Assembly (NCBI GenBank): GCA_965202905.1 | Contig: OZ241868.1 | Coordinates: 900,879 to 964,878 of the forward strand | DNA: 64,000 bases | DNA from: Alphaproteobacteria bacterium | GTDB lineage: Bacteria > Pseudomonadota > Alphaproteobacteria > MPNO01 | Reading direction: 5' to 3' | Shown: positions 1 through 56,123 of the stretch, piece after piece | Layout: each line of letters begins with the position of its first letter | Position numbering within the stretch: the first letter of the stretch is position 1 | Translations under genes and position numbers: made by a program | Notes under the pieces: generated by a model | Databases searched by the model: none | What the model was told of the DNA's origin: nothing | Seen by the model: only the letters and a program-made list of their open reading frames with translations

Positions 1-797
1 GCGTCCTGCCGACCACGCTGTTCGCGACCATCTGCTCGACCGCGACCGCGATCGTGGCGGCCAGACTCTATGGCCGCTTCGCCGCCTCTCCGGCCGCGAT
101 CGCCGAGCGTCTAAGGCTCGAGGTCCAGCCGGCCGAAACGCCCGCAGGGGGGGACCTGCCCGCGTTCGACGCGCAAGCCGCGCAAGCCGCAAGCGAAGCC
201 TATCCGACCTGGGTTTCGGTGCTGGCGCTGGGCTTCGTCGCGGCGCTGACGCCGCTGACTATATTCTTCGGCACCCATATCTCGCCCTGGATCATCCCCG
301 GCTTGATGGTTGGCCTTCTCGGGTTCGGGGTCGTCAGGCGTGTCAGGATCTACGAGGTCTTCGTCGAGGGCGCGCGCGACGGCTTTCAGGTCGCGGTCCG
401 GATCATTCCCTACCTGGTGGCAATCCTGGTGGCGGTCGGCATGTTCCGCTCCAGCGGCGCGCTGGAGGCGCTGATCGCGGTCATCTCGCCGGTCACCTCG
501 CTGGTCGGTATGCCGGCCGAAACGCTGCCCATGGCCCTGCTCCGCCCGCTGTCGGGCTCGGGCGCCTATGGCGTCCTGGCCTCGATCATCAACGATCCGG
601 CAGTCGGCCCGGACAGCTATGCCGGATACGTCGTCAGCACCCTCCAGGGCTCGACAGAGACGACGTTCTACGTGCTGGCGGTCTATTTCGGCGCCGTGCA
701 AATCCGCCGCATCCGGCACGCGCTGGCGGTCGGGCTGACCGCCGATCTCGCCGGGATCGCCGGCGCGGTGGCGATCTGCGCCGCGCTCTACGGCTGA
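1..797 (+). CDS. Nucleoside-recognition (Gate) domain membrane protein, SpmA/SpmB-like; 5' end runs off the window
   Basis: ORF 54..797 (GTG-initiated in the track) with no in-frame stop back to position 3. Hydrophobic multi-helix protein with PGLMVGLLGFG and GAYGVLASI motifs typical of nucleoside transporter/FeoB-gate domain proteins. Confidence 0.55.
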   Translation, partial: VLPTTLFATICSTATAIVAARLYGRFAASPAAIAERLRLEVQPAETPAGGDLPAFDAQAAQAASEAYPTWVSVLALGFVAALTPLTIFFGTHISPWIIPGLMVGLLGFGVVRRVRIYEVFVEGARDGFQVAVRIIPYLVAILVAVGMFRSSGALEALIAVISPVTSLVGMPAETLPMALLRPLSGSGAYGVLASIINDPAVGPDSYAGYVVSTLQGSTETTFYVLAVYFGAVQIRRIRHALAVGLTADLAGIAGAVAICAALYG

Positions 798-1230
798 CCG
801 GCAAGCAGCGGCTGTATTGCGCAAATGAATTCGGGTAAAAAGATACGGAGCCAAAGTCGGCGCCGGCCATTATGGCCCCGCAAGTTAAAGGGGGAACAAT
901 CAAACTCCCCTGTGGCGCAATGGATTCGCGGAAGGGAGAAACCGCAAATCCGAGCTACATGACCCTTAAATGCACTTGATTTGTTAATCGCAAAATGAGT
1001 TTTGCCGGAAATATAATTAGTCTTTTTATTTCAGTGAAATAGAGGATAGCTTGTCCAGCTTGTCGCGGCCGTCGCCAGCCCGCACGACCGGATCACCTGT
1101 GACAAAATCCGAATCGGCGATCACCCACGACATCGCAGGCAGCATCAATTCGCGCCGGACCGGGCGGATCACCCCGGGACTACCGCGCGAGGCGCCGCCG
1201 AGCCGGTTCAGTGGCCTCGATCGCCGGTCT

Positions 1231-1686
1231 CTATTGGCTCCACTCGGTCAGCCTGCCTTCGGAGAAATAGGCTCGGGACATGTGGATCACGCTGTCGAAC
1301 AGGATGCCCGCGGAGAACCTTCCGTGGCGATCACGCTGTACGCAGTAATGCGGGTAGTCGCAGCCGAAGATCCACTCTTCCAACCGGAGGTTCGAGAATT
1401 TGTTGATCCGATAGGGGCGGCCCCAGGCGGCGCTGACCTCCGCCGGGGTCATCCCGATCACGAGCTTACCCGACTTGATCGCATCTATAGTCCTGGTATC
1501 GAGGCCCGGGTTTGCCGCGATGTAGTCCTGGCGGGATTCCTGCAACAGCGTCCAGTCGGATTTCAGATCGCTCACGCATCCGCCGGACACCGCCACCGCC
1601 AGTGCCGCAAGGACCGTCATCCGGATTGCCCCAAGATTCCTGTCTTGTTCCACCGTCCCAATGGCCCTGAGCTTCAGATACCGCAA
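1231..1686 (-). CDS. Hypothetical lipoprotein
   Basis: N-terminal signal peptide MTVLAALAVAVSGGC with a lipobox cysteine. Overlaps an antisense low-complexity ORF (1051..1698) that I discounted. Start is probably internal, near MTVLAALAV. Confidence 0.35.
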   Translation of the reverse strand: MRYLKLRAIGTVEQDRNLGAIRMTVLAALAVAVSGGCVSDLKSDWTLLQESRQDYIAANPGLDTRTIDAIKSGKLVIGMTPAEVSAAWGRPYRINKFSNLRLEEWIFGCDYPHYCVQRDRHGRFSAGILFDSVIHMSRAYFSEGRLTEWSQ

Positions 1687-1694
1687 ATCCCGGC

Positions 1695-3050
1695 TTAGTC
1701 GCGCCGGTCGACGAACCGCGGCGCCTTGACGCTCGCCTCGAACTCCCCGGCGAGCGCGCCGGTCTCGAGGACCACGACCTCTGGGGTGAACTCGAACGAA
1801 GCCTTGGTTCGGCGCTCGACGTCCAGGCGCTGCGCCTCGGCGTCGACGCCGCGACGGATTTCGATCGAGACCCGCATCAGGTCGAGCCCGGTCGTGTCGT
1901 TGACCAGCTCGGCCTTGAAGTCGTTGATCGCGGCGTTCTCGAACATGAAGTCCTCGAACTCCTGGTGATTGACGTTCACCCCGCGAACTTTGAAGAACCC
2001 TGCGGTCCGGTGGGCGTGGCGCAGCAGCGGGAAAACCGAGAACGGGCCGTCATCGCTCGTCACCGGGTTCATGATCACGATGTCGCCGGAATCCCAGCGC
2101 AGGAAAGGCGCACCTTCGTTGCCGAATAGGGCGGTGACCACCAGCCGGCCGGGCGTACCGTCGGGAACCGGCTTGCGGGTCTCCGGATCGAGCACCTCGA
2201 AAAATGCGAGATCCGACCAGACCCGAAAGGCCTCGCGCGAGGGTCCTTCGGCGCCCAGCATGCTGATCTCGGTCATGCCGAAGCAGTCGAAGACCCTGGC
2301 CCCCCAATCGCGCTCCAGCTTCTCGCGCTTGGCCGCCGAGCAAGGCTCGGCGGTGCACATGACGGTCCTGACCGAGCTGCCGGCAAGATCGCGCCCTTCC
2401 GCGTTGGCGAGGTTCGCCAGATGCAGGCCGTAGCTCGACATCCCCATCCACACCGTCGGCAGGAGCATCCCGATCAACTCGAGCTGCTGGGTCGAGGGCA
2501 GCGATGCGCCCGATCCGCCCCAGACTACGCCCATGCCCATGATCTCGGCCGCGCGCGCCCACACGTGGCCGGCGGGGTGGATGCCAAGCGGCATCGACAG
2601 GTGCACCTTCTCGTTCGGTCCCGGCGCCGTTCCGATCCCGGCGCAAGCGAATGTCCGGGTGAACCCGATCATGTTGTAGAGCATGTCCTCGTAGGTCTTG
2701 GGGTAGAACAGCGGCCGGCCGGTGCTGCCGCCCGAGCGCCAGTACTCGCAAATCGGCGTCTGTCCGGCGGTGCAGAAATCGGCGTAAAACGCCTCCGGCG
2801 TCATCGCGCGGAGCTGGTCCTTGTCGAGGATCGGGATTCGCGCCCACTCCTCGGGATCGTCCAGCTTGTCGAGCGCGACCGACTCCAGCCGCGGCCGCCA
2901 GTAGCTCGACCGGCGCGCCCGCTCCACGGCCACGCGCTTTCGCGTGCTCTGCAGTGCCGCGAGGTCTTCAGGGCTTGCCGGAATGCATAGCGGCAGGTCG
3001 ACGTAATGGGCCCTGCGGTGGATCCGGGCGAGATTCTCGAGCGCGCTCAT
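1695..3050 (-). CDS. Phenylacetate-CoA ligase (PaaK)/coenzyme F390 synthetase family adenylate-forming enzyme
   Basis: The track ORF 1695..3701 is over-extended. The real start is MSALENL (ATG at 3050) in an ATGA overlap with the upstream gene's stop. YWRSGGSTGRP (AMP-binding P-loop-like), PaaK-type C-terminal region. Confidence 0.7.
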   Translation of the reverse strand: MSALENLARIHRRAHYVDLPLCIPASPEDLAALQSTRKRVAVERARRSSYWRPRLESVALDKLDDPEEWARIPILDKDQLRAMTPEAFYADFCTAGQTPICEYWRSGGSTGRPLFYPKTYEDMLYNMIGFTRTFACAGIGTAPGPNEKVHLSMPLGIHPAGHVWARAAEIMGMGVVWGGSGASLPSTQQLELIGMLLPTVWMGMSSYGLHLANLANAEGRDLAGSSVRTVMCTAEPCSAAKREKLERDWGARVFDCFGMTEISMLGAEGPSREAFRVWSDLAFFEVLDPETRKPVPDGTPGRLVVTALFGNEGAPFLRWDSGDIVIMNPVTSDDGPFSVFPLLRHAHRTAGFFKVRGVNVNHQEFEDFMFENAAINDFKAELVNDTTGLDLMRVSIEIRRGVDAEAQRLDVERRTKASFEFTPEVVVLETGALAGEFEASVKAPRFVDRRD

Positions 3051-4057
3051 GCGCCGCCGCGATCCCCGCGATAGCCGAGGGCGCCGACCCAGCGCTCCTG
3101 GGCCCGGTAGCTGTCCGGCAACCGCCCGACATCTTCCTCGGCGTGCATCGCGTTCAGGCGTTCCGTCTTCCCGGCGTTCGCCTCGGGGATCTCCGCCAAT
3201 GCCTCGTCCAGCATCGCCGCATAGTCCTCGCCCACCGGACAGACGTCCTGGCAGCGCCGGCAGCCGGTGATCACCCCGGCGCCGCGCAGGATGGATTGCC
3301 AGAGATTGAAGCTGGTCTCCGAACGGATCAGGTCGAGCTGGGCGGCCCCGTCGGGCGCCTCCAGGATCTTGCCCAAATGGTCGGCGAACTGAGCGAAGCC
3401 GTGCGGCGAGCGGTACCGGTCGCAAGCCGGCCAGTCCCGGTCCCAGTGACCGACCACATCGCCCGGACAGGCCGACAGGCAGCGGCCGCATTCCGGGCCC
3501 TTGCACAGGGTCTCGGCAATCCGGGAATCGGCCTCGCAGTCGAGGCTGCACAGCACCGCCGTCAGGATCACCCGCGGCCCGAATTCCGGCGTGATGAGCT
3601 GGAGGTTGAGCCCCAGCGTGCCGAGCCCGGCCTCGACCGCGGCATGGCTGAGCGAGAGCACCGTCGTCATGTGCTGTCCCGGATCGCCGCGATAGCGCCA
3701 CGGATCGACATGGGTCGGCGGGATGATAATCGCCGGATAGCCTTGATCCTCCAGCCAGAAGACCATCTCCAGCGCGGTCTCCTCCAGCATCGTCAGCGTG
3801 ATCTCGTCGTTGTAGTACTTATGGCGCTCGTCCCAGCGGGCGATCCGCGTGGTGCCGGCGGTGTAACGCTTGGCAAGAACGATCGCCCGGCCGGCGTCGT
3901 GCTCGGTGATGTCGCTCGGCCGGCGCGGATCGCGCGGGTCGGGCGGATGAGCGTCCATCACCGCGCCGTCGGCGATGCCGACGAGATCGGCGCCGAGCGC
4001 CCGGGCCTTCTCCTTGATCGCCGCGGCATCGAGCGGGGTCTTGTAGGCGGCGACCAT
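3047..4057 (-). CDS. QueG-like (epoxyqueuosine reductase family) 4Fe-4S double-cluster protein, paralog 1
   Basis: AGLGTLGLNLQLITPEFGPRV resembles the QueG AGLGWxGKxxLLIxPExGS region. Two Cys clusters: CKGPECGRCLSACP and CRRCQDVCP. 336 aa. Stop overlaps the PaaK-like start. Confidence 0.6.
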   Translation of the reverse strand: MVAAYKTPLDAAAIKEKARALGADLVGIADGAVMDAHPPDPRDPRRPSDITEHDAGRAIVLAKRYTAGTTRIARWDERHKYYNDEITLTMLEETALEMVFWLEDQGYPAIIIPPTHVDPWRYRGDPGQHMTTVLSLSHAAVEAGLGTLGLNLQLITPEFGPRVILTAVLCSLDCEADSRIAETLCKGPECGRCLSACPGDVVGHWDRDWPACDRYRSPHGFAQFADHLGKILEAPDGAAQLDLIRSETSFNLWQSILRGAGVITGCRRCQDVCPVGEDYAAMLDEALAEIPEANAGKTERLNAMHAEEDVGRLPDSYRAQERWVGALGYRGDRGGA

Positions 4058-4060
4058 CGC

Positions 4061-5086
4061 TCAGTCCTCGCCCGCGTCTTGCCCGCGCGCGCGCTGTTCC
4101 GCCTTGAAGGCCTGGAGCTGGCGGGCGACGATTCCCTTGTAACCTTCCGGTCCGACCCAGCGCACGTTCCAGTCGTCGAGCCCGTCGATGTCCGCGCCGG
4201 CCTTGCGCGCGTCCTTGAAGCCGCGCGCCTTATCGACCTTCTCCGGCGTCTTCTCCGGGATCACCTTCTGCAGCTCCGCCAAATGAGCGTGGTAGTCGTT
4301 GCCCACCGGACAGACCGCGAGGCAGCGCGGGCAATCGCCGAAAGAACCCACCACCCGCAACAGCCCCTGCCAGAACCCGAAGATCTCGCGGTCGGCGATC
4401 CGCCGGCGCCTGGTCGCGCCGTCCGATGCGATAAAGTGCTCCCAGAACTTGAGGATGGTCGAGAAGCCGAACTCCTGGGCTTCGGTCGAGCATGCCCGCT
4501 TGTCGATGCCGAAATGGCGCACCGCATCGGTCGGGCAGGAATAGAGGCAGCGGCTACAGCTCTCGCCGATACAAACCTGCTCGGTCATCGGTCGGTCGGG
4601 CTCCAACTCGCATTCGCTCAGCACGCCGGTCAGATAAACCCGCGGACCGAACTCCGGGGTCAGGATGTTCACTTCCAGGCCGAACGTGCCGAGCCCCGCC
4701 TCTATCCCCAGATGCCTTGTGCTGAGCCGTCCGTAGGACGCGCGCTTGTAGGACCAGTCGGTTTCCTGCGCCGCGGTCACGAAGCTCGGAAAGCCGGCGC
4801 GCTCCAGCGCCTCGACCACGCGATAGGCGATCTTGTCCATACGCCGCAGCACCAGCATGTCGATGTACTGGACCGGCACGTTGGTCTTGCAGCGGAAGGC
4901 GCCGACCGGGATGCGCTGGACGATGACGACGACCGATTTCACATGCGGCGAGATCCGCTCCGGGGTCTGGGGGAACAGCGGATCCGGGGGAAAGGCGTTG
5001 AGCACCTCCGCGCTTGCGACGCCGACCAGATCGGCGCCGAAGGATTTTGCCAAGTCCTTGACTTTCCGGGCTTCCATGACAACCAC
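4061..5086 (-). CDS. QueG-like 4Fe-4S double-cluster protein, paralog 2 (tandem duplicate)
   Basis: About 40% identical by eye to paralog 1 with the same architecture (GLGTFGLEVNILTPEFGPRV; CIGESCSRCLYSCP; CPRCLAVCPVG). 3-nt gap to paralog 1. Confidence 0.6.
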   Translation of the reverse strand: MVVMEARKVKDLAKSFGADLVGVASAEVLNAFPPDPLFPQTPERISPHVKSVVVIVQRIPVGAFRCKTNVPVQYIDMLVLRRMDKIAYRVVEALERAGFPSFVTAAQETDWSYKRASYGRLSTRHLGIEAGLGTFGLEVNILTPEFGPRVYLTGVLSECELEPDRPMTEQVCIGESCSRCLYSCPTDAVRHFGIDKRACSTEAQEFGFSTILKFWEHFIASDGATRRRRIADREIFGFWQGLLRVVGSFGDCPRCLAVCPVGNDYHAHLAELQKVIPEKTPEKVDKARGFKDARKAGADIDGLDDWNVRWVGPEGYKGIVARQLQAFKAEQRARGQDAGED

Positions 5087-5190
5087 GTTGACAGCCTTCG
5101 CGCGCCCAACCTCGCACAGCCCCCGGCGGGCGGCAAGTGGCGGACCGTGCGTTTGCCCGACCGCGCCGGGCGGCGTATTTAGAATTTATA

Positions 5191-6302
5191 TGAGTGGGTT
5201 TACCGTCTCACCGCTGGCGGGCGTCGATCGGGCCGCCGGCGATCTGCGCCGCGGCCTGCCGGTTATCGTCGCCGAACCGGACAGTACGGCCGGCGTGATC
5301 GCCTTCGCCGCTGAACTCGCCTCGGCCGAACGCTTGGCCGCGCTGCGGCGCTGGGCCGGCGCGGAGCCCGATCTGACGATCACCCGCAACCGGGCGATCA
5401 CGCTGAAGATCCGGCTCTATACCCCGGACGTGGTGCGCATTCCGGTCCCCGACTGGCTGTCGGTCGAGGCGCTGGCAAGTCTGGCGGACCCGGCGACCGA
5501 TCTGTCCCAGCCGCTGCGCGGGCCGTTCGAAGCGCGCCGCGAACCGGTGCCAGAAGGGGTCCTCGCCGCGATCCGCCTGGCCAAGATCGCCCGGCTGCTG
5601 CCGGCCGTGCTCGCCGTTACGGTCGATGATCTCGACGCTTCGTTGGGCGCGCTCGCCGCATCCGTCCTGCGCACGGGCGCATCGGACATCATGGCTTATG
5701 ATGTCGCCGCGGCCTGTGCGCTGGAGCGCGTAACCTCGGCGCGGGTCCCGCTCGCCGGCGCCGAGACGACCCGGGTCGTCGCCTTCCGGCCGTCCGACGG
5801 CGGTATCGAGCACTTCGCGATCGTGATCGGCGATCCCGCGCCGCCGGGCCCGGTGCTGGCGAGGCTTCACTCCGAATGCTTCACCGGCGACCTGCTCGGC
5901 TCACTCAAATGCGATTGCGGCCAGCAGCTTCGAGGGGCCATCGCGCAGATCTCGGCCGCCGGCAGCGGCGTCCTGCTCTACCTCGCCCAGGAAGGCCGCG
6001 GCATCGGTCTGATCAACAAGCTGCGCGCCTACGCGCTGCAGGACCAGGGCTTCGACACCGTGGAGGCCAACGAGCGGCTGGGCTTCGAGGCCGACGAGCG
6101 GATCTTCCTGCCCGCCGCGGAGATGCTGCGCCGGCTGGGCTTCGTCAAGGTCCGGTTGATGACCAACAACCCGGACAAGGTCGACGGACTCGCCCATTTC
6201 GGCATCGAAGTAACCGAGCGCGTCCCCCACGCCTTCCCGTCGAACGACCACAACGCGTTCTACCTGTCCACCAAGGCCCGCAAGAGCGGCCACCTCCTTT
6301 GA
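5191..6302 (+). CDS. ribA: GTP cyclohydrolase II with a roughly 170-aa N-terminal extension
   Basis: HSECFTGDLLGSLKCDCGQQL zinc/catalytic motif and the LAQEGRGIGLINKLRAYALQDQGFDTVEAN region of GCH-II. ATG at 5191 (MSGFTV). The track ORF 4833..6302 is over-extended. Confidence 0.8.
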
Positions 6303-6339
6303 GCACCGCCAGGGCCGCCGCGATGACCGGCCAGTGTCT

Positions 6340-6601
6340 CAAGTTTGAAATCGGGAGATGTTGACAGGTAAGGCCGCGAGAACCAGCGGCAGGCCATGCA
6401 GTATCGAAGCCTTGCGAAGCATCTGACGATGAGCTGTACGCCGGCGAGATAGAGTGATGTTTCGGCGGTGGCGATGGCGGTCTCGAAGTCCTTGGCGAGA
6501 CGTGGGTTACGGTTGAACCAGGCGAAGACGCGCTCGACGATCCAGCGCCTTGGCGCCGCCTGGAAGCCGGTGGCGGTGGCGGATCGTTTGACGAATTGCA
6601 C
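6340..6601 (-). mobile_element. IS5-family transposase C-terminal remnant (pseudogene)
   Basis: RRWIVERVFAWFNRNPRLAKDFE is the signature C-terminal motif of IS5/IS427-group DDE transposases. Only about the last 85 aa are present. There is no N-terminal part, and the reading frame runs past the normal C-terminus. Confidence 0.7.
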
Positions 6602-6727
6602 GCTCCAGCGGCATACGCTTCAATGAGGTTGTCGGCCTCGAGCGTGTTGAACCCACACGCAGCCGTCTATAGTTTGGCGCGCCGCTGCTCCGCTCCAGCG
6701 GGAATACGGCTTGCCCGGAGACGATGA

Positions 6728-7609
6728 ATGCTCGGAACCCTTTTCGGCCGTTCACAACCGGACACGCTGCGATATGAAAGGACGCGCCGTTCGTACGATG
6801 AAAAGCGGGGTTACGAGCAATGGCACCGGCAATGCCGCTCGGCGTTCGGGCCTACTCCGTCGAGGAGCATTGAAGCCGCGGAGCTTGAGAAAACCGGCTT
6901 TACAAGCCTGCCGGTCCTGTCGTCCCAGCAGGCCGGCTTGGTGCTGGACCGCATGCGCGCATGTGCGAGCCCGGTAGATGCCAGGACCCGAGACTATGAG
7001 GACGTTTTTGTAATCTTCGACCGGATCATGATCGCGGAGACGTTTGAGGAGATATTCAGCGGGCCGATCGACAGGACTATCAGTGCTTGTTTCGGCTCCG
7101 AACACCTGATCTACTGGTGGACTTTGAGAAGAACCCGATCCAGGAAGATGTCGGAACGATCATTCCTGTGGCATTGCGACAAGGGTCCCTCGTCGCACCT
7201 CAAGCTTCTCTTGTACTTCAACCCGACCGCAGAGCATGGTGGCAGTACCGAGTTCGCCAACAAGGACACCACCGAGGCAGTAGGCCGAACCGGTTATATC
7301 TACGGACCGAATGCGAAACGCAGATCGGACCTCCGACCGCTAGCCGAAACAAGCGGGATCGGGTTCGAGACGACCAGGTACGACATGGCCGCCGGTGAGG
7401 CCATTCTCTTCGAACCGGCGCGGGTCCTGCATCGGGGTATTCTTCCCGTCACGGGAGAGCGATGGGTTCTGACCCTCTGCCTCGTCCCCAGCCCGTTGCC
7501 GTGGCAGACGGTCTTCGCGCGAACCGGCGGTTTCGTTGCCCACGATTTCGCTTGGCATCGTCATGCTTCGGAGTTCGCCCGACTGATCGGTCATCCGACG
7601 ACCGGGTAA
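6728..7609 (+). CDS. Hypothetical protein, possible 2OG-Fe(II)/cupin-type oxygenase
   Basis: WHCDKG ... HRG spacing resembles an HxD...H facial triad. Local GC is lower than the surroundings. Sits next to the IS remnant. Confidence 0.3.
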   Translation: MLGTLFGRSQPDTLRYERTRRSYDEKRGYEQWHRQCRSAFGPTPSRSIEAAELEKTGFTSLPVLSSQQAGLVLDRMRACASPVDARTRDYEDVFVIFDRIMIAETFEEIFSGPIDRTISACFGSEHLIYWWTLRRTRSRKMSERSFLWHCDKGPSSHLKLLLYFNPTAEHGGSTEFANKDTTEAVGRTGYIYGPNAKRRSDLRPLAETSGIGFETTRYDMAAGEAILFEPARVLHRGILPVTGERWVLTLCLVPSPLPWQTVFARTGGFVAHDFAWHRHASEFARLIGHPTTG

Positions 7610-7948
7610 TATTGAGCGGTTCGGCAAGGAGGAGCACTACGATGCTACGGAGAGTACGTAAGCTGTATGCCGGCTTTTTCGGCCGCAGCCTGATCCCCAA
7701 ACGGCGGCGGCGCGTTCACCCGAGAGGAGATCGCGCAGTACCGCGAGGTATTACGCAAGCCGCTGTTGCTCAAGGGCGCGCCGTACACACATGATGCCGA
7801 ACGCCCGACCTCGCGATCGGGTTGGAAGGCGTCGTCTGGGGCCATGACGGGCGCCAGATCGACGCCCTGCCGGTGCCGATCGACATTTGAGCGGGATGGG
7901 CCAGAGAGTAGGAGGCAACGGAAATGGTTACTCTCGTAAATAACTCCC

Positions 7949-8850
7949 TTACCGCTTCGTCCTTTTCGCGAAACCGGAAATGAGGCCGGCACTTCGGGAA
8001 ATGGAATAGAGATTCCGCATGAAACGGTACGGAAGCGGCAGACATATCGGGATCAGGAGTATTTGTAGAACCAGCCTGACAGACGACTTGCCCAGCCCGG
8101 TCAGGCTCCCGGCCCGCCGCCGGCTTTCGGGAGCGCCCTTGAGGATCCGCGCGGCGCGGCCGAGCCCTTTATCGAAGCCGTATTTCAGGACCTTGAGCGT
8201 CGTCATCCGGCCACCGTGGCCGCGCAGAACGATCGAGTTTTGCGCCAGCGCCGTGGAAATACCGGCGGCGCGGGCGCGCAGGAAAAAGTCCTTGTCTTCG
8301 CCGAGACGAAATCGGGGTCGAAATAGGGGCGCGGCAACCGCTGAAACACCTCAGCATCAATCAACACGTTGCCGGTCCCGACATGGCGCGGCAGGCCGTT
8401 CGACCTAACCTCGCCGGAAAATACCGGATCCCTGAATGCGCCCAGCGTCGCCCTGGCCCAGCCGGGCGCGGGCGCCAACGGGTCTTGCCGCCAAGCCCCG
8501 AACACGATCCCGGAATGGGTTTGATGCCGTTTCGCGAGAAGCTGTTTCAGCCAATCCGGCTCGGGCCGGTCGTCGTCGTCCAGGAAAGCGATGAAATCGG
8601 CGCCGTGTTGGAGTGCCGCCTCGACGGCAGTCCCGCGGGCGAATCCGCGGCCGCGACGAGGCTCCGGCACATAGCGGACCATCGCGCCGGCGACGCCGGT
8701 GCAGGCCGCCTCGGCGCTTGGAGGGGCGTTGTCGACGACGAAGATCGCCGGCTCCTCAATATCGCTGTAATCGAATCCCGTGATAAGCCGAAGTAGCGAG
8801 GCGAGATGCTCCGGGCGCTTATAAGTGCAGATGCAGACGGCGATTTTCAT
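7949..8850 (-). pseudogene. Family-2 glycosyltransferase with a frameshift near 8315
   Basis: N-terminal MKIAVCICTYKRPEHL ... FVVDNAP ... FLDDDD (GT2 DxD). The C-terminal part (GEDKDFFLRARAAGISTALAQNS...) continues in another frame as ORF 7949..8206. Either a genuine frameshift or a sequencing error. Confidence 0.55.
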
Positions 8851-9183
8851 GGATGGGGGATGGGGAATGCGTCACCGATAAGCAGTCGTTCGATGCACCC
8901 GATTTTAAGCCGGCAGCGGGCTGCGGGCAAGGCACCGCCTACAGGCCCACCGACCTCACCGCGCGCGGCTGAACCAGTGCCGACAGACTCCGGCCGGCAC
9001 GCACCGGCTCAACAAGCTGGGTGCAGTCAGCGGCTATCGGTCGCTGGGCAAGGCGCCTCAAGGGCCGGCGCCGGCCCCGAACTGTACGAAGCGCCAGGAC
9101 TCGTTTGACGCGGCGGATATCGTGCGGCACGGCAGGCGACATCGAAGACTGAAAACCCGACGATCCGTGCGGTGGACCTGAGG

Positions 9184-9214
9184 CACAAAAGAAGGACGGC
9201 TCGAAGAGCCGTCC
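9184..9214 (-). terminator. Rho-independent terminator downstream of tRNA-Pro
   Basis: GGACGGCTC-GAA-GAGCCGTCC hairpin followed by a U-rich run on the minus-strand transcript. Confidence 0.5.
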
Positions 9215-9232
9215 CCAAGTGTTTGAAAATAT

Positions 9233-9309
<77 letters not shown>

Positions 9310-9368
9310 TCGGCTGTGCGAACGGGTGAATCATAGCAGGTTCGGGACGGATGACAACGTCTCCGGAC

Positions 9369-9899
9369 TCAGCCGATCGCCTTGCGGAGGCTTTCCCGGA
9401 GCGATTCGATCTCGGCCAGCACGTCTTCCATCGCGGCACGGAGGGCCTCGAGTTCGCCGGTGCCGGCCGTGGGCGTCTCGACCGCCATGACCGGCGCCGG
9501 CGCGGACGGCGTGCCGGCGGGCTCCGGAGGGGGCTTGGCGCGCTGGGGCGCAGCGCGCGCATCCTCGCCCGGCCCGGCCGGGCCGCGGGCCTCCGCGTCC
9601 CGGCCGGGCGCCTTGATGCCGTCCTTGCGCAGCAGCTTCTGGACGCCTTTGATCGTGTAGCCGTCCGTATACAGCAGCTCACGAATCAAGCGCAGCAGGT
9701 CGATGTCCTCAGGCCGGTAGTAGCGCCGGCCGCCGCCGCGCTTCAGCGGCCGGACCTGGCTGAACTTGCTCTCCCAGAACCGCAGCACATGCGGCGGCAC
9801 GTCGAGGTCGCCGGCGACCTCGCTGATCGTCCTGAACGCGGTTGCGGACTTGGTCCCGCGGCGGCGTTCCGGCTCGGTCGCTTCTGCGGGTTCAGCCAT
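9369..9899 (-). CDS. MerR-family transcriptional regulator
   Basis: N-terminal HTH ([25 protein letters not shown]), Pro/Ala-rich linker, C-terminal coiled coil. Conserved position downstream of ihfA in alphaproteobacteria. Confidence 0.7.
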
Positions 9900-9911
9900 C
9901 GCCGCGATGCT

Positions 9912-10238
9912 CTAACCGTTCGCTTCGGCGCCGGAGAGGCGGGATAACGCGCCGTTGATGCGCGCCTTGAGCACGTTGGAGGCGCGGAAGACCAGCACCT
10001 TGCGCGGCATGATCGGGACCTCCTGTCCGGTCTTGGGATTGCGGCCGACGCGCTCTCCCTTCTGGCGGACCGAGAAGCTGCCGAAGGACGAGATCTTGAC
10101 CGGCTCGCCGCGCGTCAAGGTATCGGAGATCTCCCGCAGCACGGTCTCGACGAGGTCGGCCGATTCGTTCCGGGACAGGCCGACCTCCTGGTAGACTGCC
10201 TCGCTGAGCTGTGCGCGGGTTACGGTTTGTGGCGTCAT
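9912..10238 (-). CDS. ihfA: Integration host factor subunit alpha
   Basis: [31 protein letters not shown] ... [12 protein letters not shown] matches IHF/HU-fold IhfA. Start placed at ATG 10238. Confidence 0.85.
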
Positions 10239-14451: not shown

Positions 14452-16560
14452 TCAGGCCGCGAGCACCGCGAGCAGCAGGATCGCCACGATGTTGATGATC
14501 TTGATCATCGGGTTCACCGCAGGACCCGCGGTGTCCTTGTAGGGATCGCCGACGGTATCGCCGGTTACCGCGGCCATGTGCGCATCGGAGCCTTTGCCGC
14601 CGTGATTGCCGTCCTCGATGTATTTCTTGGCGTTGTCCCAGGCTCCGCCACCGGAGGTCATGGACAGGGCGACGAAGATGCCGGTGACGATGGCGCCCAG
14701 CAGCATGGCGCCGACCGTGGTGAACCCAGCCTCCCGGCCGCCGACGGCGTACATGACGAAATAGACCACGATCGGCGCCAGAACCGGCAGCATCGAGGGC
14801 ACGATCATCTCGCGGATCGCGGCCCGGGTCAGCAGATCGACCGCACGGCCGTACTCGGGCCGGCTGGTGCCTTCCATGATCCCCGGGATCTCGCGGAACT
14901 GGCGCCGGACCTCGATCACCACGGCGCCGCCGGCCCGGCCGACGGCCATCATGCCCATCGCGCCGAACAGGTAGGGCAAGAGCCCGCCGATGAACAGCCC
15001 GATGACTACGAAGGGATCGGATAGCCGGAAGGTCAACTTCCCGGCGATATCGGGGAAGTAATAGCTCAGGTCCTGGGTATAGGCGGCGAACAGAACCAGC
15101 GCGGCGAGCCCGGCCGAGCCGATGGCATAGCCCTTGGTGACCGCCTTGGTCGTGTTGCCCACAGCATCCAGAAGGTCGGTATGCTTGCGGACATCCTCGG
15201 GCAGGTCGGCCATCTCGGCGATGCCGCCGGCGTTGTCGGTCACCGGCCCATAGGCATCGAGCGCCACCACCATGCCGGCGAGCGCCAGCATGGTGGTGGC
15301 TGCGACCGCGATACCGTAGAGCCCGGCCGCGAAATAGGCGACGATGATTCCGGCGCAGATCACGATCACCGGAAGCGCGGTGGCCTCGAGCGAGACCGCG
15401 AGGCCCTGGATCACGTTCGTCGCGTGCCCGGTCTCCGAGGCCTTGGCAACGCTGCGGACCGGCCGGTACTCCGTCGAGGTGTAGTATTCGGTGATCCAGA
15501 CCATCAGCCCGGTGACCACCAGGCCCACCAAGCCGCAGTAAAGCAAATCGAGCGGCGCAATCGTGCCGTCGCCGAGCGGGATCTCGGCGGTGAAGCTGCC
15601 GAACAGGAGATAGATCGCAAGTGCGATCAGGATGGCGGAGATCACGGCGCTGGCCACGAAGCCCTTATAGAGCGCGGCCATGACGTTGTTGTTCGGGCCG
15701 AGCCGGACGAAGAACGTCCCGATCACCGAGCCGATGATGCAAACCGCACCGATCGTCAGCGGCAGCGCCATCATCGATTCCTGGATCGGGCCGGTGAAGA
15801 AGATCGCGCCCAACAGCATCGTCGCGACGACGGTCACGGCGTAGGTCTCGAACAAATCGGCCGCCATCCCGGCGCAGTCACCGACATTATCGCCCACGTT
15901 GTCGGCGATCACGCCCGCATTGCGCGGATCGTCCTCGGGGATACCCGCCTCGATCTTGCCGACGAGATCCGCGCCGACATCCGCACCCTTGGTGAAAATG
16001 CCGCCGCCCAGCCGGGCGAAGATCGAAATCAGCGAAGCGCCGAAGCCGAGCGCGACCAGGGCCTCGAGGATATGGCGAAGCCCGGCCGGATCCGCCGGGT
16101 CGAAGATGCCGCGCAGGATCACATAGTAGACCACCACGCCCAGCAGCCCCAGCCCGACCACCAGCATGCCGGTGACCGCGCCGGACTTGAAGGCGATGTC
16201 GAGCGCCGGCTTCACCCCGCCGGTGCGCGCGGCGTTGGCGGTGCGCACGTTGGCCCGCACCGAGACGTTCATGCCGATATAGCCGGCGACCCCGGACAGG
16301 ATCGATCCGATGAAGAACCCGATGGCGACATAGATGTTGAGCAACAGGCCCAGGATCACGCCGACGACGATGCCGACGATGCCGATCGCGGTGTACTGGC
16401 GGTTCAGATAGGCTCCCGCACCTTCCTGAATCGCCGCGGCGATTTCGATCATTCGGTCCGTGCCGGGGCTCGCCGCCAGAATCGAACGGACGGCGTAGAG
16501 CCCGTACAAGATCGCAAGGGCGCCGCACGCGGCGACGATCCAATAGGTGGTGACCATCAT
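14452..16560 (-). CDS. hppA: Membrane-bound proton-translocating pyrophosphatase
   Basis: 702 aa, 15-16 TM helices. [36 protein letters not shown] and [14 protein letters not shown] signature motifs. Confidence 0.92.
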
Positions 16561-20142: not shown

Positions 20143-21369
20143 CTACCCGTGCTCGGCCGCGACGGGGCGCCGTTCGACGATTCGAAGACCGTAGGCCTCC
20201 AGCCCGACGACCGCGCGCGGATGGTTCGTCAAGAGGATCATGTCGTGGACCCCGAGGTCGCGCAGGATTTGTGCGCCGACACCGTAATCCCTCAGCGCCG
20301 GCGGGCTGAAGGCGCGCTCGCCACCGGTGGTCACGCTGACCTCGAACGACGCCGCGCCGGGATCGTCGGGCAGTTCGTGGCGCTGGCGCACCTGATTGGC
20401 GAAGCTTTGCGCGTAGGAATCGCGGATCATCACCACGATCCCGCGGCCGGCCTCGCCGATCGCCCGGATGCAGGATTCCATCTCGTCGCCGCGCCCGCTG
20501 GTCTGATCGTGCAACACGTCGTCGAGCACGTTGATCGCGTGCATCCGAACCATCAGCGGATCCGACCCGGCGATGTCGCCCTTGATGAGCGCCAGGTGCT
20601 CGGCCCCGGTGATCCTGTTCACGTAGACGATCAATCGGAACTCGCCGCCATTGCGCCGCCTCACGCGGGTTTCCAGCATACGCTCGACCAAAGTGTCGTT
20701 GCGCAGCCGGTACGCGATCAGGGCTTCGATGGTGGCGATCTTGAGGCCGTGGTACTGGGCGAAGCTCACCAAATCCGGCAGCCGGGCCATGGTGCCGTCG
20801 TCCTTCATGATCTCGCAGATCACGCCCGAAGGGTTCAGACCGGCGAGCCGGGCGATGTCGACCGAGGCCTCGGTGTGGCCGGCGCGCTCGAGCACGCCGC
20901 CGTCGCACGCGACTAACGGAAAGACATGGCCGGGCGTGACGATGTCATCGGCGCCCTTGGTCGGATCGATCGCGACCGCGATGGTACGGGCGCGGTCGGG
21001 CGCGGAGATTCCCGTCGTCACCCCGTCGCGCGCCTCGATCGAGACGGTGAAGGCGGTCTGATGACGGGTCCGGTTCTGCTGGGACATCAGCGGCAGGCCA
21101 ATGGCCTCGACCCGCGGCCGGGCCATCGCCAGACAGATCAGCCCGCGCCCGTGCGTGGCCATGAAGTTGACCACCTCCGGCGTCGCCATCTGAGCCGCGA
21201 CGACCAAATCGCCCTCGTTCTCGCGGTTCTCGTCATCGACCAGAATGACGGCCCGGCCGTTTCGGATGTCCTCGATCGCCTCCTCGATCGAGGACAGATA
21301 GCCGGAGGCGTGCTCGACGGCCGCCTGGCCGATACCGGATTTCGATACGCGTTTGAGCTCATCACCCAC
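20143..21369 (-). CDS. ribB: RibBA-type protein: intact DHBP synthase domain fused to a degenerate (Cys-less) GTP cyclohydrolase II domain
   Basis: The N-terminal half has the RibB motifs ([35 protein letters not shown]). The C-terminal half aligns to GCH-II but lacks the CX2GX...CXC zinc ligands ([22 protein letters not shown] in place of HSECLTGD...C.CG). Confidence 0.85.
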
Positions 21370-34667: not shown

Positions 34668-35210
34668 AAGACGCGATGCCGGCGACATCGAACCCCACCG
34701 CTGCCGAAATTGGCGCACGATCAAACCCTTGGGGCGGAAGTCGTCAGGCACCGGGAAGCGCAGAAGGTTGACTTCCAGGCGCTCGGCGAATTTCGCATGT
34801 GCCCGCTGTCGATACCAAGCCTCGACGAGCTCGCGCGTGACCTCGGACCTCTCCGGCCTATGAGTTTGGACGACGATGAAGCCACGGACGAGCTTCACCG
34901 TCGCCTGGACGTGGGGCACTACCTTCAACCGATACTGGCGTCCGAGATAAAGATGGGTCTCGCCCGCCACATATTGGCGATCCGGGGTGCGCGGAAGGAA
35001 CTGGATGAAATAGCGCTGCTGACGCCGGATCCAGGCTGCGCGCTTGCACACCTTCTCCTCGATTGCCGCCAGCGGAGCATCCTGCGGGGCGGCGATGACA
35101 ACGGAAGCATCAGGCTCGACAGCGATTTCCAGTGTCGTCCGTTCACGGCGCACAATGGCGAAGTCGATCCTGTGTTCACCGTACTGGACGCTGTGTCGTT
35201 CGGTCTTCAT
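34494..35210 (-). CDS. YgjP-like M48-family metallohydrolase (DUF45)
   Basis: VQYGEHRIDFAIVRRERTTLEIAV N-terminus and a C-terminal HELCH zinc motif (ITHELCHIAVPHHG). This family is commonly adjacent to type I R-M hsdR genes. Confidence 0.7.
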   Translation of the reverse strand: MKTERHSVQYGEHRIDFAIVRRERTTLEIAVEPDASVVIAAPQDAPLAAIEEKVCKRAAWIRRQQRYFIQFLPRTPDRQYVAGETHLYLGRQYRLKVVPHVQATVKLVRGFIVVQTHRPERSEVTRELVEAWYRQRAHAKFAERLEVNLLRFPVPDDFRPKGLIVRQFRQRWGSMSPASRLLLNRRLIEAPMDAIDYVITHELCHIAVPHHGPDFFELLDRVLPDWPKRKHRLEQRMA

Positions 35211-38200
35211 CCCGGAAACCGCGCCCGCGCAAGGTCCATGATCTTGAGCTCAAGGTCGTCCATCACCTCTACTGGCAATGCGATGCCACGTTCATCGCGA
35301 AGGATGTCGAAGAAATAGTCGTCGATAGCGTCGCGCATCTTGTTCTGAGCGATGTCGTTGGACCAGACATCGACGATGTGATGGGACTTGATGACGTCGA
35401 TGATCGTGAGCCCGATGGACGCGACTTCATCCGCCTCAATGGGTTCGCCGTCATCGGTCGCGAGTAAGCCTTCAAGGATCCCAAAAAACGCCTGCCCATC
35501 GTCGTTGCCTCTGATCGCATCCGGCACCTCGCGACCCCGGTCCTTGCGCGCGACCTTGCTCGCCAGATCGACAACGTTCTTGAGGTAGTCCCGTTCGGAG
35601 ATCCGTTTGGCTCGGTAGTCGCGGATGGTCTCCTCCAGCAACTCGGAGAACTTCCGGTAGAAGGTCGGGTCCTCCTCCATCTTTTCGGTGATAGTCCGCC
35701 GTGTCGCGCTGGCGATCCGGTCCGCCCTTGACGCCTCGGAGACGCCCGTTTCCTCCACCACGGCTTTCAGCGCGTCCGGGTCGTTGATGTTGACCATCTC
35801 GATGATCGTCTCGGTCGGCATGGCAACCACATGGTCGTCGAGCAGCTTCTGAATCTTCGGCTCGAACTCCTTGACGTCGATGGTCTCCTGGTAGCGCAGC
35901 TGGACCGAGCGCCGCAGTTCCGAAAACTGCTTCCAGTCCCGCTTCATGGCATCGATCTTCGACTCGTCGAAGACGCCGAAGAGCTTGTCCGACGATAGCG
36001 AAATATGTAGGCAGCGGCTGAACGCCTTCAGCCGTTCATAGAATTCCTGCCGGATCGCCTCGTCGGCCAGGAACTGCTCGAACTGCTCCATATCCTTCTT
36101 GTTCTTGACCGGCTTGAACAGGTCCCAGAGCTGATCGTGCAACTGGGGCAGCCTCCGGATTTCCTCGCGCATGTCGTGGACCGTGTCGGCGAGATCGTCG
36201 GCATCAAAGCCCTCAAAGGCGCTATAGGTCGTCAGCGCCGTGTCCAGTTCTCCGAGCAGCCCCTCATAGTCGATGATGAAGCCGAACTGCTTCTCGGTTG
36301 CGCCGTCTTCGTAGAGCCGGTTCACGCGGGCGATTGCCTGCAGCAGGTTATGTTCGCGCAGCGACTTGCAGACATAGAGCACGGTATTGCGCGGCGCATC
36401 GAAACCGGTCAGCAGCTTCGAGACGACGATGAGGACTTCCGGATCGCCGGACCCTTTGAACGCCTCGATGATCTGCCGTGTGTATTCGTCCTCGGTCTTG
36501 TACCTGGCCATCATCTGCGCCCAGAACCCACGCACGAGGTCCTTCGATTCCTTGTCAACCTCCTCGTTGCCCTCGTTGTCATCGGGAGGAGAGATGACGA
36601 TTTCGCTGGTGACGTGCCCGATCTCGTCGAGCACTTCCTTGAAGCGGACGGCTGCTGCCTTGGACGGCGCCACGAGTTGGGCCTTGAACCCAGTGCCCTG
36701 CCAGTGCTGGCGAAAATGCTCCGAGATGTCGAAGGCTTTCGCCCGGATTGCCTGCCCCGTTTTCGACAGGGCGTCCATGCGCGAGAACTTGCGCTTCAGG
36801 TCGGACTTCTGGCTATCGGTCAGGCCTTCGCTGATCTTGTCGAACCACTTGTCGATCACGCCGCCATTGACCTGCTGCTCGACGAGGCGGCCCTCATAGA
36901 GGAGCGGCACGACGGCTCCATCAGCAACAGCCTCGTCAATCGCGTATTTGTGGACCAAGCCGCCGAAGGTCGAGAGCGTATTCTTCTCCTTCTTCAGGAG
37001 CGGCGTTCCGGTGAAGCCGAGATAGCAGGCCTTCGGCAGCAGCCGGCGCATCCGCGTAGCGAACTGGCTGTGACCGCCATAGCGGCCGGTCTGCGAGCGA
37101 TGGCTTTCATCGACCAGGACGAACACGTTGGCGTCCTCGTCGACATCTTCGGCGGCTTTGGCTGCCGTATCGAACTTGTTGATGATGGTCGTCACGAGCG
37201 GTGTCCGGTTGCGGATCAGCTCGATCAGATGGGCCCCGCTAGTCGCCCGCACGGGTTCCAGTTCGCAGGACTTGAACGTGTCCTTGATCTGCTTGTCGAG
37301 ATCGTCGCGGTCGGTGACGATAAGGATGCGCGGATTGGGAATGGCCTTGTCGAGCGCAAGGGATCGACCCAACATCACCATGGTCAGGGACTTGCCCGAC
37401 CCTTGAGTGTGCCAGATTACACCGCCCTTGCGCCGGCCGTCGAGGTTGAACTGGCGGACACGCTCGACAGCCTTGCGGATCCCAAAGAACTGCTGGTGGC
37501 GCGCGACCTTGCGGGCGCCGCCATCGAACACTGTGAAACGACGGATCAGATCCAGTAGGCGTTCCGGCCGACACAGCGCATGAATAGCGCGGTCCTGCGC
37601 GGTGATCGCGCGCGGCCCCTCGGCTGCAAGCGCCTCGAAATGGTCACGCGCGAAGGCGAAGTCGCCCGAGAAGACCGCATCAGCCTCAGCCCCCGTGAGA
37701 GGCCGATTGGCTAGGGGATCGATGTACTCGTCCCGGTCTTCCTCATCCCACCACATTTGCCAGAACTGCCGCGGTGTGCCCACGGTGGCGTACCGCGCCT
37801 CGACTCGGTTCATGACCATGAGAATCTGCGCGAAGTGGAATAGCTGCGGGATGTTGTCTTCGTTCTGATAGCCGATCAGCTGGCTACCAGCCTTCTTCAG
37901 GCTCTCGGTCGGCCGCTTGTTCTCGATCACCAGAAACGGGATGCCGTTCACATAGGCGACAATATCGCACCGCTTGGTTTGGGTGCTGGCCGTGCGCTCG
38001 ACGGAAAGCTCGGCCGTCACGTGATAGACGTTGTTCGCTGGCGTCTCCCAATCGATGTAGCGGAACGAATAGGACTTGGAGTCCCCCTGGATCGTCTTGG
38101 TGATAGTCGTGCCAAGGACGAGAGTGTCGTAGATGTCCTGGTTGGTGCCGCGCAGGCCCTTTTGCCGGTCGGGCGTGGGCTTCAGTCGGCGAATAGCCTC

Positions 38201-38422: not shown

Positions 38423-39267
38423 TGCGTACCCTCCGAAAACAGCCCGGAGAGTGATGCCCGCGCGGCGACGACATTGATGTTGGCTTTGATAATGCGATCG
38501 AGGTCGCTGCCATCCGTGTAGATGGCGGGTGCAACGCAATGGACCCTGCCATCATTGATGTAGTTGTCGGCCTTATCGCGCGCGCCCTTGGTGTGGGGCT
38601 TGAAGACGGCCACCGAAAGCCCGCCCTGTTCCTTGACGAGTCGAAAGCACGGGATATCGGTCGGGCCGTCGCCGATGAACACCATGTTCTCGAAGGGCAC
38701 GGGCCGGTCACGCTTCTCGACGAACTGGTTGATCTTGCTGTTGTCGCTCAGGTCGAGAGCGCCCTTGTTGATGCGGAACAGATATTGCGTCTTGGTCGTG
38801 TAGTTCACGGCGAGCGCCGGCCAGGTGGCGACGCCGTTCGGGTCGAAGATGAACCTCGACGCATAGACCTGGGCGAACTTGGAAGCGATCGGCGTGCCGG
38901 CGAAGATCTCGGCATTCCCCGACGAGACGAGGTAATGTTGAACGCGGACACCCCGCACCTTGCCATAGCCGGTGATGCGGTCGAACCACTCTTCGACCCC
39001 ATCAAAAAGCTGGATGGTCTTGCCCCGTGCTTTGAAATCGTCCCGCCGCACCGGAACTTTGGCCGCGGCCGCCTTGCTCAGCATCAGGTTCATGTAGACA
39101 AGCACTTCGTCCGCCTTATGCTCCTTGGTCAGGTGCTTTACCTCGGCCCAGAACTCCTTCGGTTTCATGCCGATGTCGGGCAGGAACTGGTGTTCCGGCA
39201 TGTTGCCGTTCGCCAACGTGCCGTCGAAGTCGTAGGCGATCGCCATTTCGATGTATTTCTTAGCCAT
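38419..39267 (-). CDS. HAD-superfamily phosphatase-like protein embedded in the type I R-M operon
   Basis: HAD motif I DFDGTL, motif II SSG, motif IV GDGPTD. RBS (GGAGAG) 12 nt after the hsdS stop. Its stop overlaps the hsdR start. Confidence 0.6.
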   Translation of the reverse strand: MAKKYIEMAIAYDFDGTLANGNMPEHQFLPDIGMKPKEFWAEVKHLTKEHKADEVLVYMNLMLSKAAAAKVPVRRDDFKARGKTIQLFDGVEEWFDRITGYGKVRGVRVQHYLVSSGNAEIFAGTPIASKFAQVYASRFIFDPNGVATWPALAVNYTTKTQYLFRINKGALDLSDNSKINQFVEKRDRPVPFENMVFIGDGPTDIPCFRLVKEQGGLSVAVFKPHTKGARDKADNYINDGRVHCVAPAIYTDGSDLDRIIKANINVVAARASLSGLFSEGTQ

Positions 39268-39279
39268 ACGATCTCTCCT

Positions 39280-56101: not shown

Positions 56102-56123
56102 GCCGGTCGCCGGGCCGGCGTCG

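Follow-up and report, generated by a model that had tools for sequence, protein, structure and literature searches.

The window analysed here is a 64,000-nucleotide stretch of the genome of an alphaproteobacterium (GTDB lineage MPNO01; assembly GCA_965202905.1, contig OZ241868.1, positions 900,879 to 964,878 of the forward strand). Positions 1695-5086 hold a compact minus-strand operon of three genes, here called A, B and C, which encode two paralogous iron-sulphur proteins related to the epoxyqueuosine reductase QueG and an adenylate-forming ligase related to the phenylacetate-coenzyme A (CoA) ligase PaaK. An earlier inspection of the letters and their open reading frames (ORFs), the sequence-only reading, had singled out this combination. 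The genes and the region upstream of them are:

4061-5077, minus strand: gene A, a 338-aa subunit with a predicted class III cobalamin/[4Fe-4S] reductase fold, the most conserved of the three
3047-4057, minus strand: gene B, a 336-aa paralogous second subunit with a constrained N-terminal domain and eight cysteines
1695-3050, minus strand: gene C, a 451-aa PaaK-clade adenylate-forming (predicted acid-CoA) ligase
5078-5207, no strand: the 130-bp region between A and ribA, presumed by its position alone to hold the promoter of the A-B-C operon

The sequence at 1695-5086 confirms the three minus-strand genes and the short junctions that had been described. A and B are separated by a 3-nt spacer (TGA-GCG-ATG), the stop codon of B and the start codon of C overlap in a shared ATGA, and the A-B-C junctions are translationally coupled. 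The ORF of A was listed as 4061-5086 with a GTG start at 5086; all orthologs begin at the ATG at 5077, and a database protein (P0001) is 100% identical to A at the length of 338 aa. An exact look-up of P0001 in the contig collection returned no record. Upstream, the operon is divergent from a long ribA gene (5208-6302, plus strand), again as the sequence-only reading had it. A sigma-70 consensus scan of 5078-5207 gave no match, a promoter and terminator scan yielded nothing useful, and an Rfam riboswitch search (cobalamin, flavin mononucleotide and other) of window positions 1-10000 and five distant loci found none.

A 742-aa ORF that runs antisense over A and B (2954-5182, plus strand) is a typical high-GC shadow ORF. 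Directly downstream of C is a lipoprotein-like ORF (1231-1686, minus strand; lipobox LAVAVSGGC), which gave no Pfam or NCBIfam match and has no counterpart in the 80 related genome loci described below. It was considered as a member of the module and dropped, being conserved in none of the related loci.

Cysteine pattern and predicted fold of A and B

A and B are paralogs with 37% identity over 331 aa (E = 2e-55). Their lengths agree closely with the 336-341 aa noted earlier, and the QueG-type core and the two cysteine clusters reported for them were both recovered. The relevant segments are:

4640-4717, minus strand: residues 121-146 of A, a block common to the corrinoid-binding domains of QueG and reductive dehalogenases (RDHs), from alignments to 5d08 and 4uqu
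4307-4573, minus strand: ferredoxin-like domain of A, with C169, C174, C177, C181, C196, C249, C252 and C256
3236-3505, minus strand: ferredoxin-like domain of B, with C185, C190, C193, C197, C212, C266, C269 and C273

The core block reads RHLGIEAGLG...TPEFGPR in A and SHAAVEAGLG...TPEFGPR in B. Its first residue in A, R121, aligns with Arg141 of Bacillus subtilis QueG, which sits under the corrin (PMC5175355); 47 of 59 family members retain this Arg, and B has Ser at the position. In both proteins the cysteines follow the order C-x4-C-x2-C-x3-CP, a lone Cys and C-x2-C-x3-CP. This is the order of the QueG pattern (C188...C247), which ligates two [4Fe-4S] clusters (PMC5175355), except for the first spacing, x4 instead of x2. 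All eight cysteines are invariant among B orthologs, and among A orthologs five are invariant and three are present at 90% or above. In an alignment of 59 family members, the five cysteines from C169 to C196 in A never vary, and the remaining three occur in 55-56. The N-terminal domain of B contains long invariant stretches of its own (RHKYYNDE and PPTH.DPW.Y), which indicates that B is not a decayed copy of A. Pfam recognizes only weak 4Fe-4S motifs in the two proteins, each about 337 aa and without an extra domain, and a Pfam scan detected no NAD(P)H- or flavin-binding domain in either. The N-termini (MEARKVKDLAKS in A and MVAAYKTPLDAA in B) are without a twin-arginine motif or other obvious signal sequence.

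Curated family models place both proteins at a distance from the named members of the class. Against the QueG model TIGR00276 (cut-off 200 bits), A scored 51.1 bits (E = 9.6e-14) and B 34.3 bits, the matches covering residues 119-199 of A (model positions 129-207 of 337) and model positions 136-195 for B. Against the RdhA model TIGR02486 (cut-off 160.35 bits) the scores were 30.6 and 25.1 bits. When A was searched as a single sequence against the PDB, QueG (5d08, 6e-11) ranked above PceA (2e-7). A profile built from 36 diverse family members matched the RDH 8q4h at 1.4e-28 and B. subtilis QueG 5d08 at 4.1e-28 (profile positions 3-206, spanning the entire cobalamin-binding domain and the first Fe-S motif), followed by PceA at 2.4e-22 and NpRdhA at 7e-16. 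A profile of B orthologs likewise matched 8q4h (8e-10) and 5d08 (5e-8).

The fold was modelled for A alone, B being assigned through its identity to A and its own profile matches. AlphaFold2 with an alignment of 59 sequences, including 27-55%-identical representatives, returned a model of A with a pLDDT of 92.1 and a pTM of 0.89; an earlier run with 19 sequences, mostly more than 78% identical, gave a pLDDT of 56 and was set aside. In a Foldseek search of the PDB with this model, the top 46 matches were all QueG, PceA/RDH or NpRdhA (E 8e-11 to 3e-6, probability 1.00), and the next was human MMACHC (CblC; E = 3.5e-4, TMt 0.45). These are the members of the class III B12 fold as it has been described (PMC4646009; PMC5175355). 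About 80 residues follow the last Cys motif in each of A and B; the A model shows four predicted helices in this tail.

By predicted fold and Cys pattern, A and B belong to the class III cobalamin/[4Fe-4S] reductase superfamily. The conserved common block and the Arg141 equivalent are indirect support that they may bind a corrinoid; the class III family is without a diagnostic sequence motif for the cobamide (PMC4646009). The earlier description as QueG-like was right in seeing Fe-S proteins of a putative B12 class, and too narrow as a label, the family profile being as close to an RDH as to QueG.

Relation to QueG, reductive dehalogenases and CblC

With QueG (5d08, 5d6s), A and B have in common the predicted corrinoid-domain fold, the AGxG...TPE(F/Y)G block, the eight-Cys pattern and a cytoplasmic location, to which A alone adds the Arg at the Arg141 position. 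No alignment passes the CxxCxxxCP motif into the C-terminal HEAT-like tRNA-binding domain of QueG (Leu257-Leu385 in B. subtilis), so the absence of this domain noted in the sequence-only reading holds. The global TM-score of the A model to QueG is 0.47. In the alignment, Ser114 of A takes the place of catalytic Asp134 of QueG, and neither protein has the DYH motif (D104-Y105-H106 in B. subtilis): A has PVQYIDM and B HKYYNDE. These last two motifs contain candidates for the single Tyr found above the corrin in every class III enzyme, Y71 in A and Y82 in B, at the start of a long helix and conserved in 33 of the 59 family members; HMMER instead puts the DYH of QueG at the middle of the long helix of A. 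QueG is a monomer, whereas A and B are two paralogous subunits that travel with a ligase, and they reach a quarter or less of the TIGR00276 cut-off. The paralogs are thus outside canonical QueG, an assignment that would have made them redundant copies.

The resemblance to RDHs (respiratory PceA/RdhA, 4uqu and 8q4h; catabolic NpRdhA, 4ras and 6zxu) lies in the fold, the redox chain and a degree of similarity equal to that of QueG. As in catabolic RDHs, A and B are without a twin-arginine translocation signal. RDHs form a divergent multigene family, whereas A and B are one highly conserved orthologous pair, and the neighbour census found no rdhB-like gene conserved near the triad. The self-sufficient catabolic RDHs treated in PMC10463259 carry a fused NAD(P)H reductase module, which is absent in A and B. 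MMACHC/CblC has in common with A the corrinoid-binding fold, and differs in being without a ferredoxin domain and in having the corrinoid as a substrate, not a cofactor (PMC4646009). Judged by these comparisons, A and B are neither QueG nor RdhA.

A bona fide RDH of the catabolic type does occur in Defluviicoccus-like loci (L003:1817-3154; 203.6 bits to TIGR02486), about 5 kb upstream of the triad. Its neighbours there are an Amidohydro_2 protein, RidA, an EamA transporter, a CoA transferase and an enoyl-CoA hydratase. This block is absent from the window.

The ligase encoded by C

C matches PF00501 (5.7e-15) and aligns over residues 26-449 with the structure of PaaK (4r1l, 1.9e-26), followed by 2y27 (6e-25). 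Further structure matches are 2-hydroxyisobutyryl-CoA synthetase, AjiA1 and NatL2 (the last two at about 1e-19), and the BagE/FevW model gives 79 bits. The ANL motifs (A3 P-loop, A5, A7, A8 and the A10 Lys) are intact, as SGGSTGRP, FGMTE, SGD, KVRGVNV and VKAPRF. The assignment of the third gene to the PaaK family was therefore sound: PF00501 and the PaaK models align, and so do the structures, at full length. C stays far below the curated thresholds for PaaK itself, with 105.2 bits to TIGR02155 (cut-off 646.3) and 144.4 bits to the haloarchaeal PaaK model NF041878 (cut-off 700). All of the 120 best relatives of C are single-domain, 367-480 aa long and without fusion to other domains, and their names go no further than "AMP-binding" or "phenylacetate-CoA ligase family"; C belongs to an orthologous group of its own. 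On these scores C is a PaaK-clade adenylating ligase and not PaaK itself, which settles a doubt raised in the sequence-only reading. Family membership and the CoA enzymes encoded nearby suggest that CoA is its acceptor.

A parallel is offered by 2-hydroxyisobutyrate-CoA ligase, a PaaK-like ligase that feeds its CoA ester to a B12 enzyme: 2-hydroxyisobutyryl-CoA passes to a B12-dependent acyl-CoA mutase. C differs from this ligase and from PaaK in falling below every curated cut-off and in having a B12 enzyme of another class as its partner. The PaaK-like clade accepts aryl-acetates, naphthoate and small branched acids (PMC8388817).

Conservation, pairing and fusion of the triad

Relatives of A are numerous, with about 1,800 clusters of A-like proteins at E <= 1e-5, and some of the clusters built at 90% identity contain hundreds of sequences. 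The best 120 all share an identity of at least 78%. In their source databases A orthologs are labelled "hypothetical", "ferredoxin" or automatically "QueG" ("epoxyqueuosine reductase QueG" in JGI pipelines). A tblastn search against plasmids gave no match for A. Gene order was surveyed in 160 loci, 80 from species-representative genomes, all of them metagenome-assembled genomes (MAGs), and 80 from metagenomes. The genome loci come from Defluviicoccus, Rhodospirillales, other Alphaproteobacteria, Burkholderiales and other Betaproteobacteria; the metagenomes are of marine, soil, peat and groundwater origin.

B comes after A in all 134 loci that leave space for it (134 of 134) and C after B in 104 of 111, so the triad is conserved in the gene-neighbourhood survey that had been proposed for it. 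The arrangement was found at 160 independent loci and is not due to chance. Relative to the window proteins, median identity is 76% for A (154 orthologs), 68% for B and 60% for C. Among the seven loci without C, a betaproteobacterial one (L068) has a different PaaK-like ligase and another (L070) has MarR, IorA and IorB; two more (L066 and L069) have in common with L068 a PaaA-like protein and an ABC transporter. Enzymes of the IorAB family yield aryl-acetyl-CoA and reduced ferredoxin. Other makers of aryl-acyl-CoA stand in for C at two of these loci, namely the ligase of L068 and the IorAB of L070.

A search of 50%-identity representatives revealed two A-B fusions of 670 and 678 aa (P0121 and P0122), in which the N-terminal half is A-type (52-53% identity) and the C-terminal half B-type (49-50%). 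P0322 is a third. The gene for P0121 is divergent to that for a 431-aa ligase with 43% full-length identity to C, which indicates that the association of A-B with the ligase survives a change of architecture. P0122 is divergent to an enoyl-CoA hydratase gene.

The metagenome scan, made with a narrow alignment, gave only A orthologs, and the gene contexts of distant relatives come from a few individual loci. These relatives (about 30% identity, often 260-340 aa) also occur as tandem paralogs without a ligase, three of them in L091:7001-9954. P0256 (L089:7176-9560) is a 794-aa triple fusion beside a URO-D-like gene and a FAD oxidoreductase gene, also without a ligase. The L091 tandem and the triple fusion indicate that assemblies of several paralogs are a trait of the family and that coupling to the ligase is specific to the subfamily. 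A third paralog, of 308 aa, is encoded just downstream of C in L019:7722-8648 and about 10 other Rhodospirillales loci. It gives 27 bits to the QueG hidden Markov model, has an altered first Cys motif and is often found by a transglutaminase-like protein and a 110-aa protein without assignment.

Genomic context

The neighbour census covered -5 to +8.5 kb around the triad, with ORFs chosen by a GC3-GC2 criterion, as is appropriate to high-GC genomes. Only A, B and C are universal across the loci. A neighbour from CoA metabolism is present in 54 of the 160, and the recurrent types are:

Liv-type periplasmic binding proteins with ABC partners: 37 of 160 loci
Enoyl-CoA hydratases: about 32 of 160 loci
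PaaA/PaaC-like diiron proteins: about 21 of 160 loci
A second acyl-CoA synthetase, directly upstream: 20 of 160 loci
4HBT thioesterases: about 18 of 160 loci; one soil lineage has the gene immediately after C
Rieske dioxygenase subunits: 10 of 160 loci
Family III CoA transferase: 10 of 160 loci
IorAB, and a thiolase with a ChsH2-type OB-fold protein: a few of 160 loci

The betaproteobacterial MAG mentioned above (L068:2387-12225) has A-B within a Paa/Box-like set with a ligase closer to canonical PaaK. The set comprises two PaaA-like proteins, two enoyl-CoA hydratases, TetR, an ABC transporter and a caprolactamase/acetophenone-carboxylase-like subunit; a Rieske ferredoxin-like ORF was identified by eye, and a PaaE- or BoxA-type reductase is not visible in the locus. 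In the window, no homologs of paaABCDE were found.

A ribA gene is nearby in 37 of the 160 loci, all of them alphaproteobacterial. In the window its product, a 364-aa long RibA, passes the TIGR00505 model (211.7 bits; cut-off 205.85), whereas the RibBA encoded in an nrdR-ribD-ribE-ribBA operon (20143-21369, minus strand) has a degenerate cyclohydrolase domain (71 bits). The stand-alone ribA most likely encodes the housekeeping GTP cyclohydrolase II, with a division of labour between RibA and RibBA. A membrane protein with a Gate (nucleoside-recognition) domain is encoded nearby in about 11 of the 160 loci. RibA and the Gate protein were considered as functional partners of the triad and set aside: the linkage is probably synteny, being limited to Alphaproteobacteria and at variable distance.

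Discussion

The A-B-C operon represents a new branch of a known enzyme class, one that is heteromeric and coupled to a ligase, and is neither an artefact nor a redundant queG. The sequence-only reading knew of no pathway to which the combination would correspond, and we too found no curated family or paper describing the module: Pfam, NCBIfam and the PDB hold no entry covering these proteins, and literature searches on QueG-like proteins with PaaK, on class III enzymes and on Defluviicoccus with dehalogenase returned no description. Its further proposal, a route of nucleoside modification, received no support and is weighed below.

With moderate confidence, about equally balanced by doubt, we regard A and B as a cytoplasmic heteromeric corrinoid/Fe-S reductase acting on an acyl-CoA made by C, the whole forming a compact catabolic module. 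A carboxylic acid, most likely aromatic or aryl-alkanoic and often imported by a Liv-type ABC transporter, would be adenylated by C and converted to its CoA thioester. A and B would each comprise an N-terminal corrinoid-binding alpha/beta domain and, after it, a ferredoxin domain holding two [4Fe-4S] clusters. The complex would probably have four clusters and up to two corrinoid sites, because both subunits keep the constrained cofactor domain. Low-potential electrons would pass through the clusters to the corrinoid, and Co(I) would subject the acyl-CoA to a two-electron reductive elimination. From there the product may enter enzymes of the enoyl-CoA hydratase type or be freed by a 4HBT thioesterase.

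Epoxide deoxygenation and dehalogenation are the two reactions known for this fold. As to the reaction here, we have a weakly held preference for a QueG-type deoxygenation of an epoxy- or hydroxy-acyl-CoA to an unsaturated or aromatic acyl-CoA. We lean this way because enoyl-CoA hydratases and PaaA-like proteins are the commonest neighbours, because a single highly conserved pair suggests one ubiquitous substrate, and because dehalogenase families are usually diverse and multi-copy. The next candidate, which we rate as rather unlikely, is an RDH-type dehalogenation of a halogenated aryl-CoA. It stays a live option because one soil lineage, with 4HBT directly after C, combines ligase, reductase and 4HBT thioesterase in a way that resembles the CoA-dependent 4-chlorobenzoate pathway, in which a ligase is followed by a hydrolytic dehalogenase of the crotonase fold and a 4HBT thioesterase. 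The likeness is in the order of steps, from activation of an aromatic acid as its CoA ester through removal of a ring substituent to hydrolysis by the thioesterase. The differences are that the middle enzyme here has a B12/Fe-S reductase fold and that a thioesterase is present in just a ninth or so of the loci.

More broadly, and tentatively, A and B may represent a third functional branch of class III cobamide enzymes: an obligate heteromer of paralogs, each with a corrinoid site, that carries out a new acyl-CoA reduction on a ubiquitous substrate. Deoxygenation of a ring-epoxy or hydroxy acyl-CoA, removal of another substituent and reduction of an aryl-CoA may all serve as examples. The users may be aerobic Alpha- and Betaproteobacteria that abound in soil, ocean and wastewater and are for the most part uncultured.

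Several observations weigh against a corrinoid-dependent acyl-CoA reductase. Asp134 of QueG is Ser in A and the DYH motif is missing; Y71 and Y82 could be the class III tyrosines, judging by motif position and predicted secondary structure. Corrinoid binding is predicted from the fold, and the class III fold is itself related to flavin-binding nitroreductase-like folds. The fusions P0122 and P0322 have no adjacent ligase, and the PaaK clade includes the CoA-independent ligases NatL2 and AjiA1. No type of neighbour exceeds about 25% of the loci, so that the catabolic context is suggestive, not decisive, and no cob or btu genes or cobalamin riboswitch were found near the locus. The high conservation of A (median 76%) also contrasts with the diversity usual among dehalogenases.

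One alternative, improbable in our view, is that A and B are corrinoid-free carriers of the poly-ferredoxin type, serving as the reductase for a PaaA/BoxB-like diiron acyl-CoA oxygenase or another partner, with the B12-like domain as a scaffold. A Cys pattern for two [4Fe-4S] clusters per subunit would suit such a role, as would the PaaA-like neighbours and the oxygenase-type set of L068 with no obvious PaaE or BoxA reductase. However, constraint in both proteins is strongest in the N-terminal domains, which keep the QueG/RDH blocks, including the Arg141 equivalent in A; most loci are without an oxygenase neighbour; and the missing NAD(P)H or flavin domain speaks against a reductase of this kind.

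We give little credence to a biosynthetic triad, in which C would be a CoA-independent ester or amide ligase of the NatL2/AjiA1/BagE type and A and B would tailor a metabolite or cofactor, perhaps by CblC-like processing of a corrinoid. The matches of C to AjiA1, NatL2 and BagE/FevW and that of the A fold to CblC point in this direction, and high conservation would fit a single ubiquitous substrate here too. Yet C resembles PaaK more than it does the CoA-independent ligases. Around the triad no further biosynthetic genes are conserved, nor any cob or btu genes, and the neighbouring genes encode catabolic CoA enzymes along with thioesterases and uptake systems.

The nucleoside route is very improbable. 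Here A and B would be extra QueG or nucleoside/tRNA enzymes and the operon would make a deazapurine-type or other nucleoside modification, possibly with ribA and the Gate protein. It draws on the best single-sequence matches, which are to QueG (TIGR00276, 9.6e-14; 5d08, 6e-11), on the proximity of ribA and Gate genes, and on the JGI labels. A and B both score far below the QueG cut-off, however; the tRNA-binding region is unaligned, Asp134 and the DYH motif are missing, and an RDH is equally close. The ribA product passes housekeeping RibA models, whereas the RibBA of the rib operon has a degenerate cyclohydrolase domain; its linkage to the triad and that of Gate are alphaproteobacterial and variable in distance, and the recurrent neighbours belong to CoA and aromatic-acid catabolism. 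Moreover, the near-constant partner is a ligase, and we know of no queuosine substrate that offers a carboxylate to activate.

Scarcely credible, finally, is that C is just the phenylacetate-CoA ligase of a paa pathway whose other genes lie elsewhere, with A and B as unrelated neighbours: PaaK models are its best named matches and orthologs are labelled "phenylacetate-CoA ligase", but it scores 105 against 646 bits, forms its own orthologous group found with A-B in 104 of 111 loci and near a distant fusion, has its start overlapping the stop of B, and is accompanied by no paaABCDE homolog in the window.

In the description given by one article of 2021, class III B12 enzymes comprise just the RDHs and the epoxyqueuosine reductases (PMC7585037). 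The QueG structure paper predicted that further families may be hidden among genes with ferredoxin-like modules (PMC4646009), and A-B-C is a concrete and abundant candidate for one. If it does carry out a new cobamide reaction on CoA esters, the reductive chemistry of B12 would be extended, carbon turnover by uncultured Proteobacteria of soil and sea would gain a B12-requiring step, and the widespread automatic "QueG" and "ferredoxin" labels would be corrected.

Other features of the window

Between ribA and a tRNA-Pro(GGG) gene (9233-9309) is a stretch of lower GC content (6260-9309; 0.59-0.63 against about 0.68 elsewhere). It holds a fragment of an IS5-like transposase (6260-6601), a 293-aa ORF that could not be annotated (6728-7609) and a truncated glycosyltransferase gene (8203-8850). 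Genes for a GMC oxidoreductase, a HAD hydrolase and Ros/MucR, which follow C in related loci, are here at about 24.6-28.7 kb, a displacement which indicates that the window has been rearranged around the operon.

A second, separate cluster of the CoA/aromatic-acid type occupies 45123-56831. It encodes a 1004-aa molybdoenzyme of the xanthine dehydrogenase family fused to CoxG, two AMP-binding acyl-CoA synthetases, a UbiD-family decarboxylase (51330-52922), a zinc-type dehydrogenase and an ATP-grasp_5 protein. The minus strand at 35207-43058 encodes a type I restriction-modification system, with HsdR (1110 aa) and HsdM (505 aa); HsdS is presumably among the intervening ORFs. An H+-translocating pyrophosphatase is encoded at 14452-16560 on the minus strand (PF03030, 882 bits).

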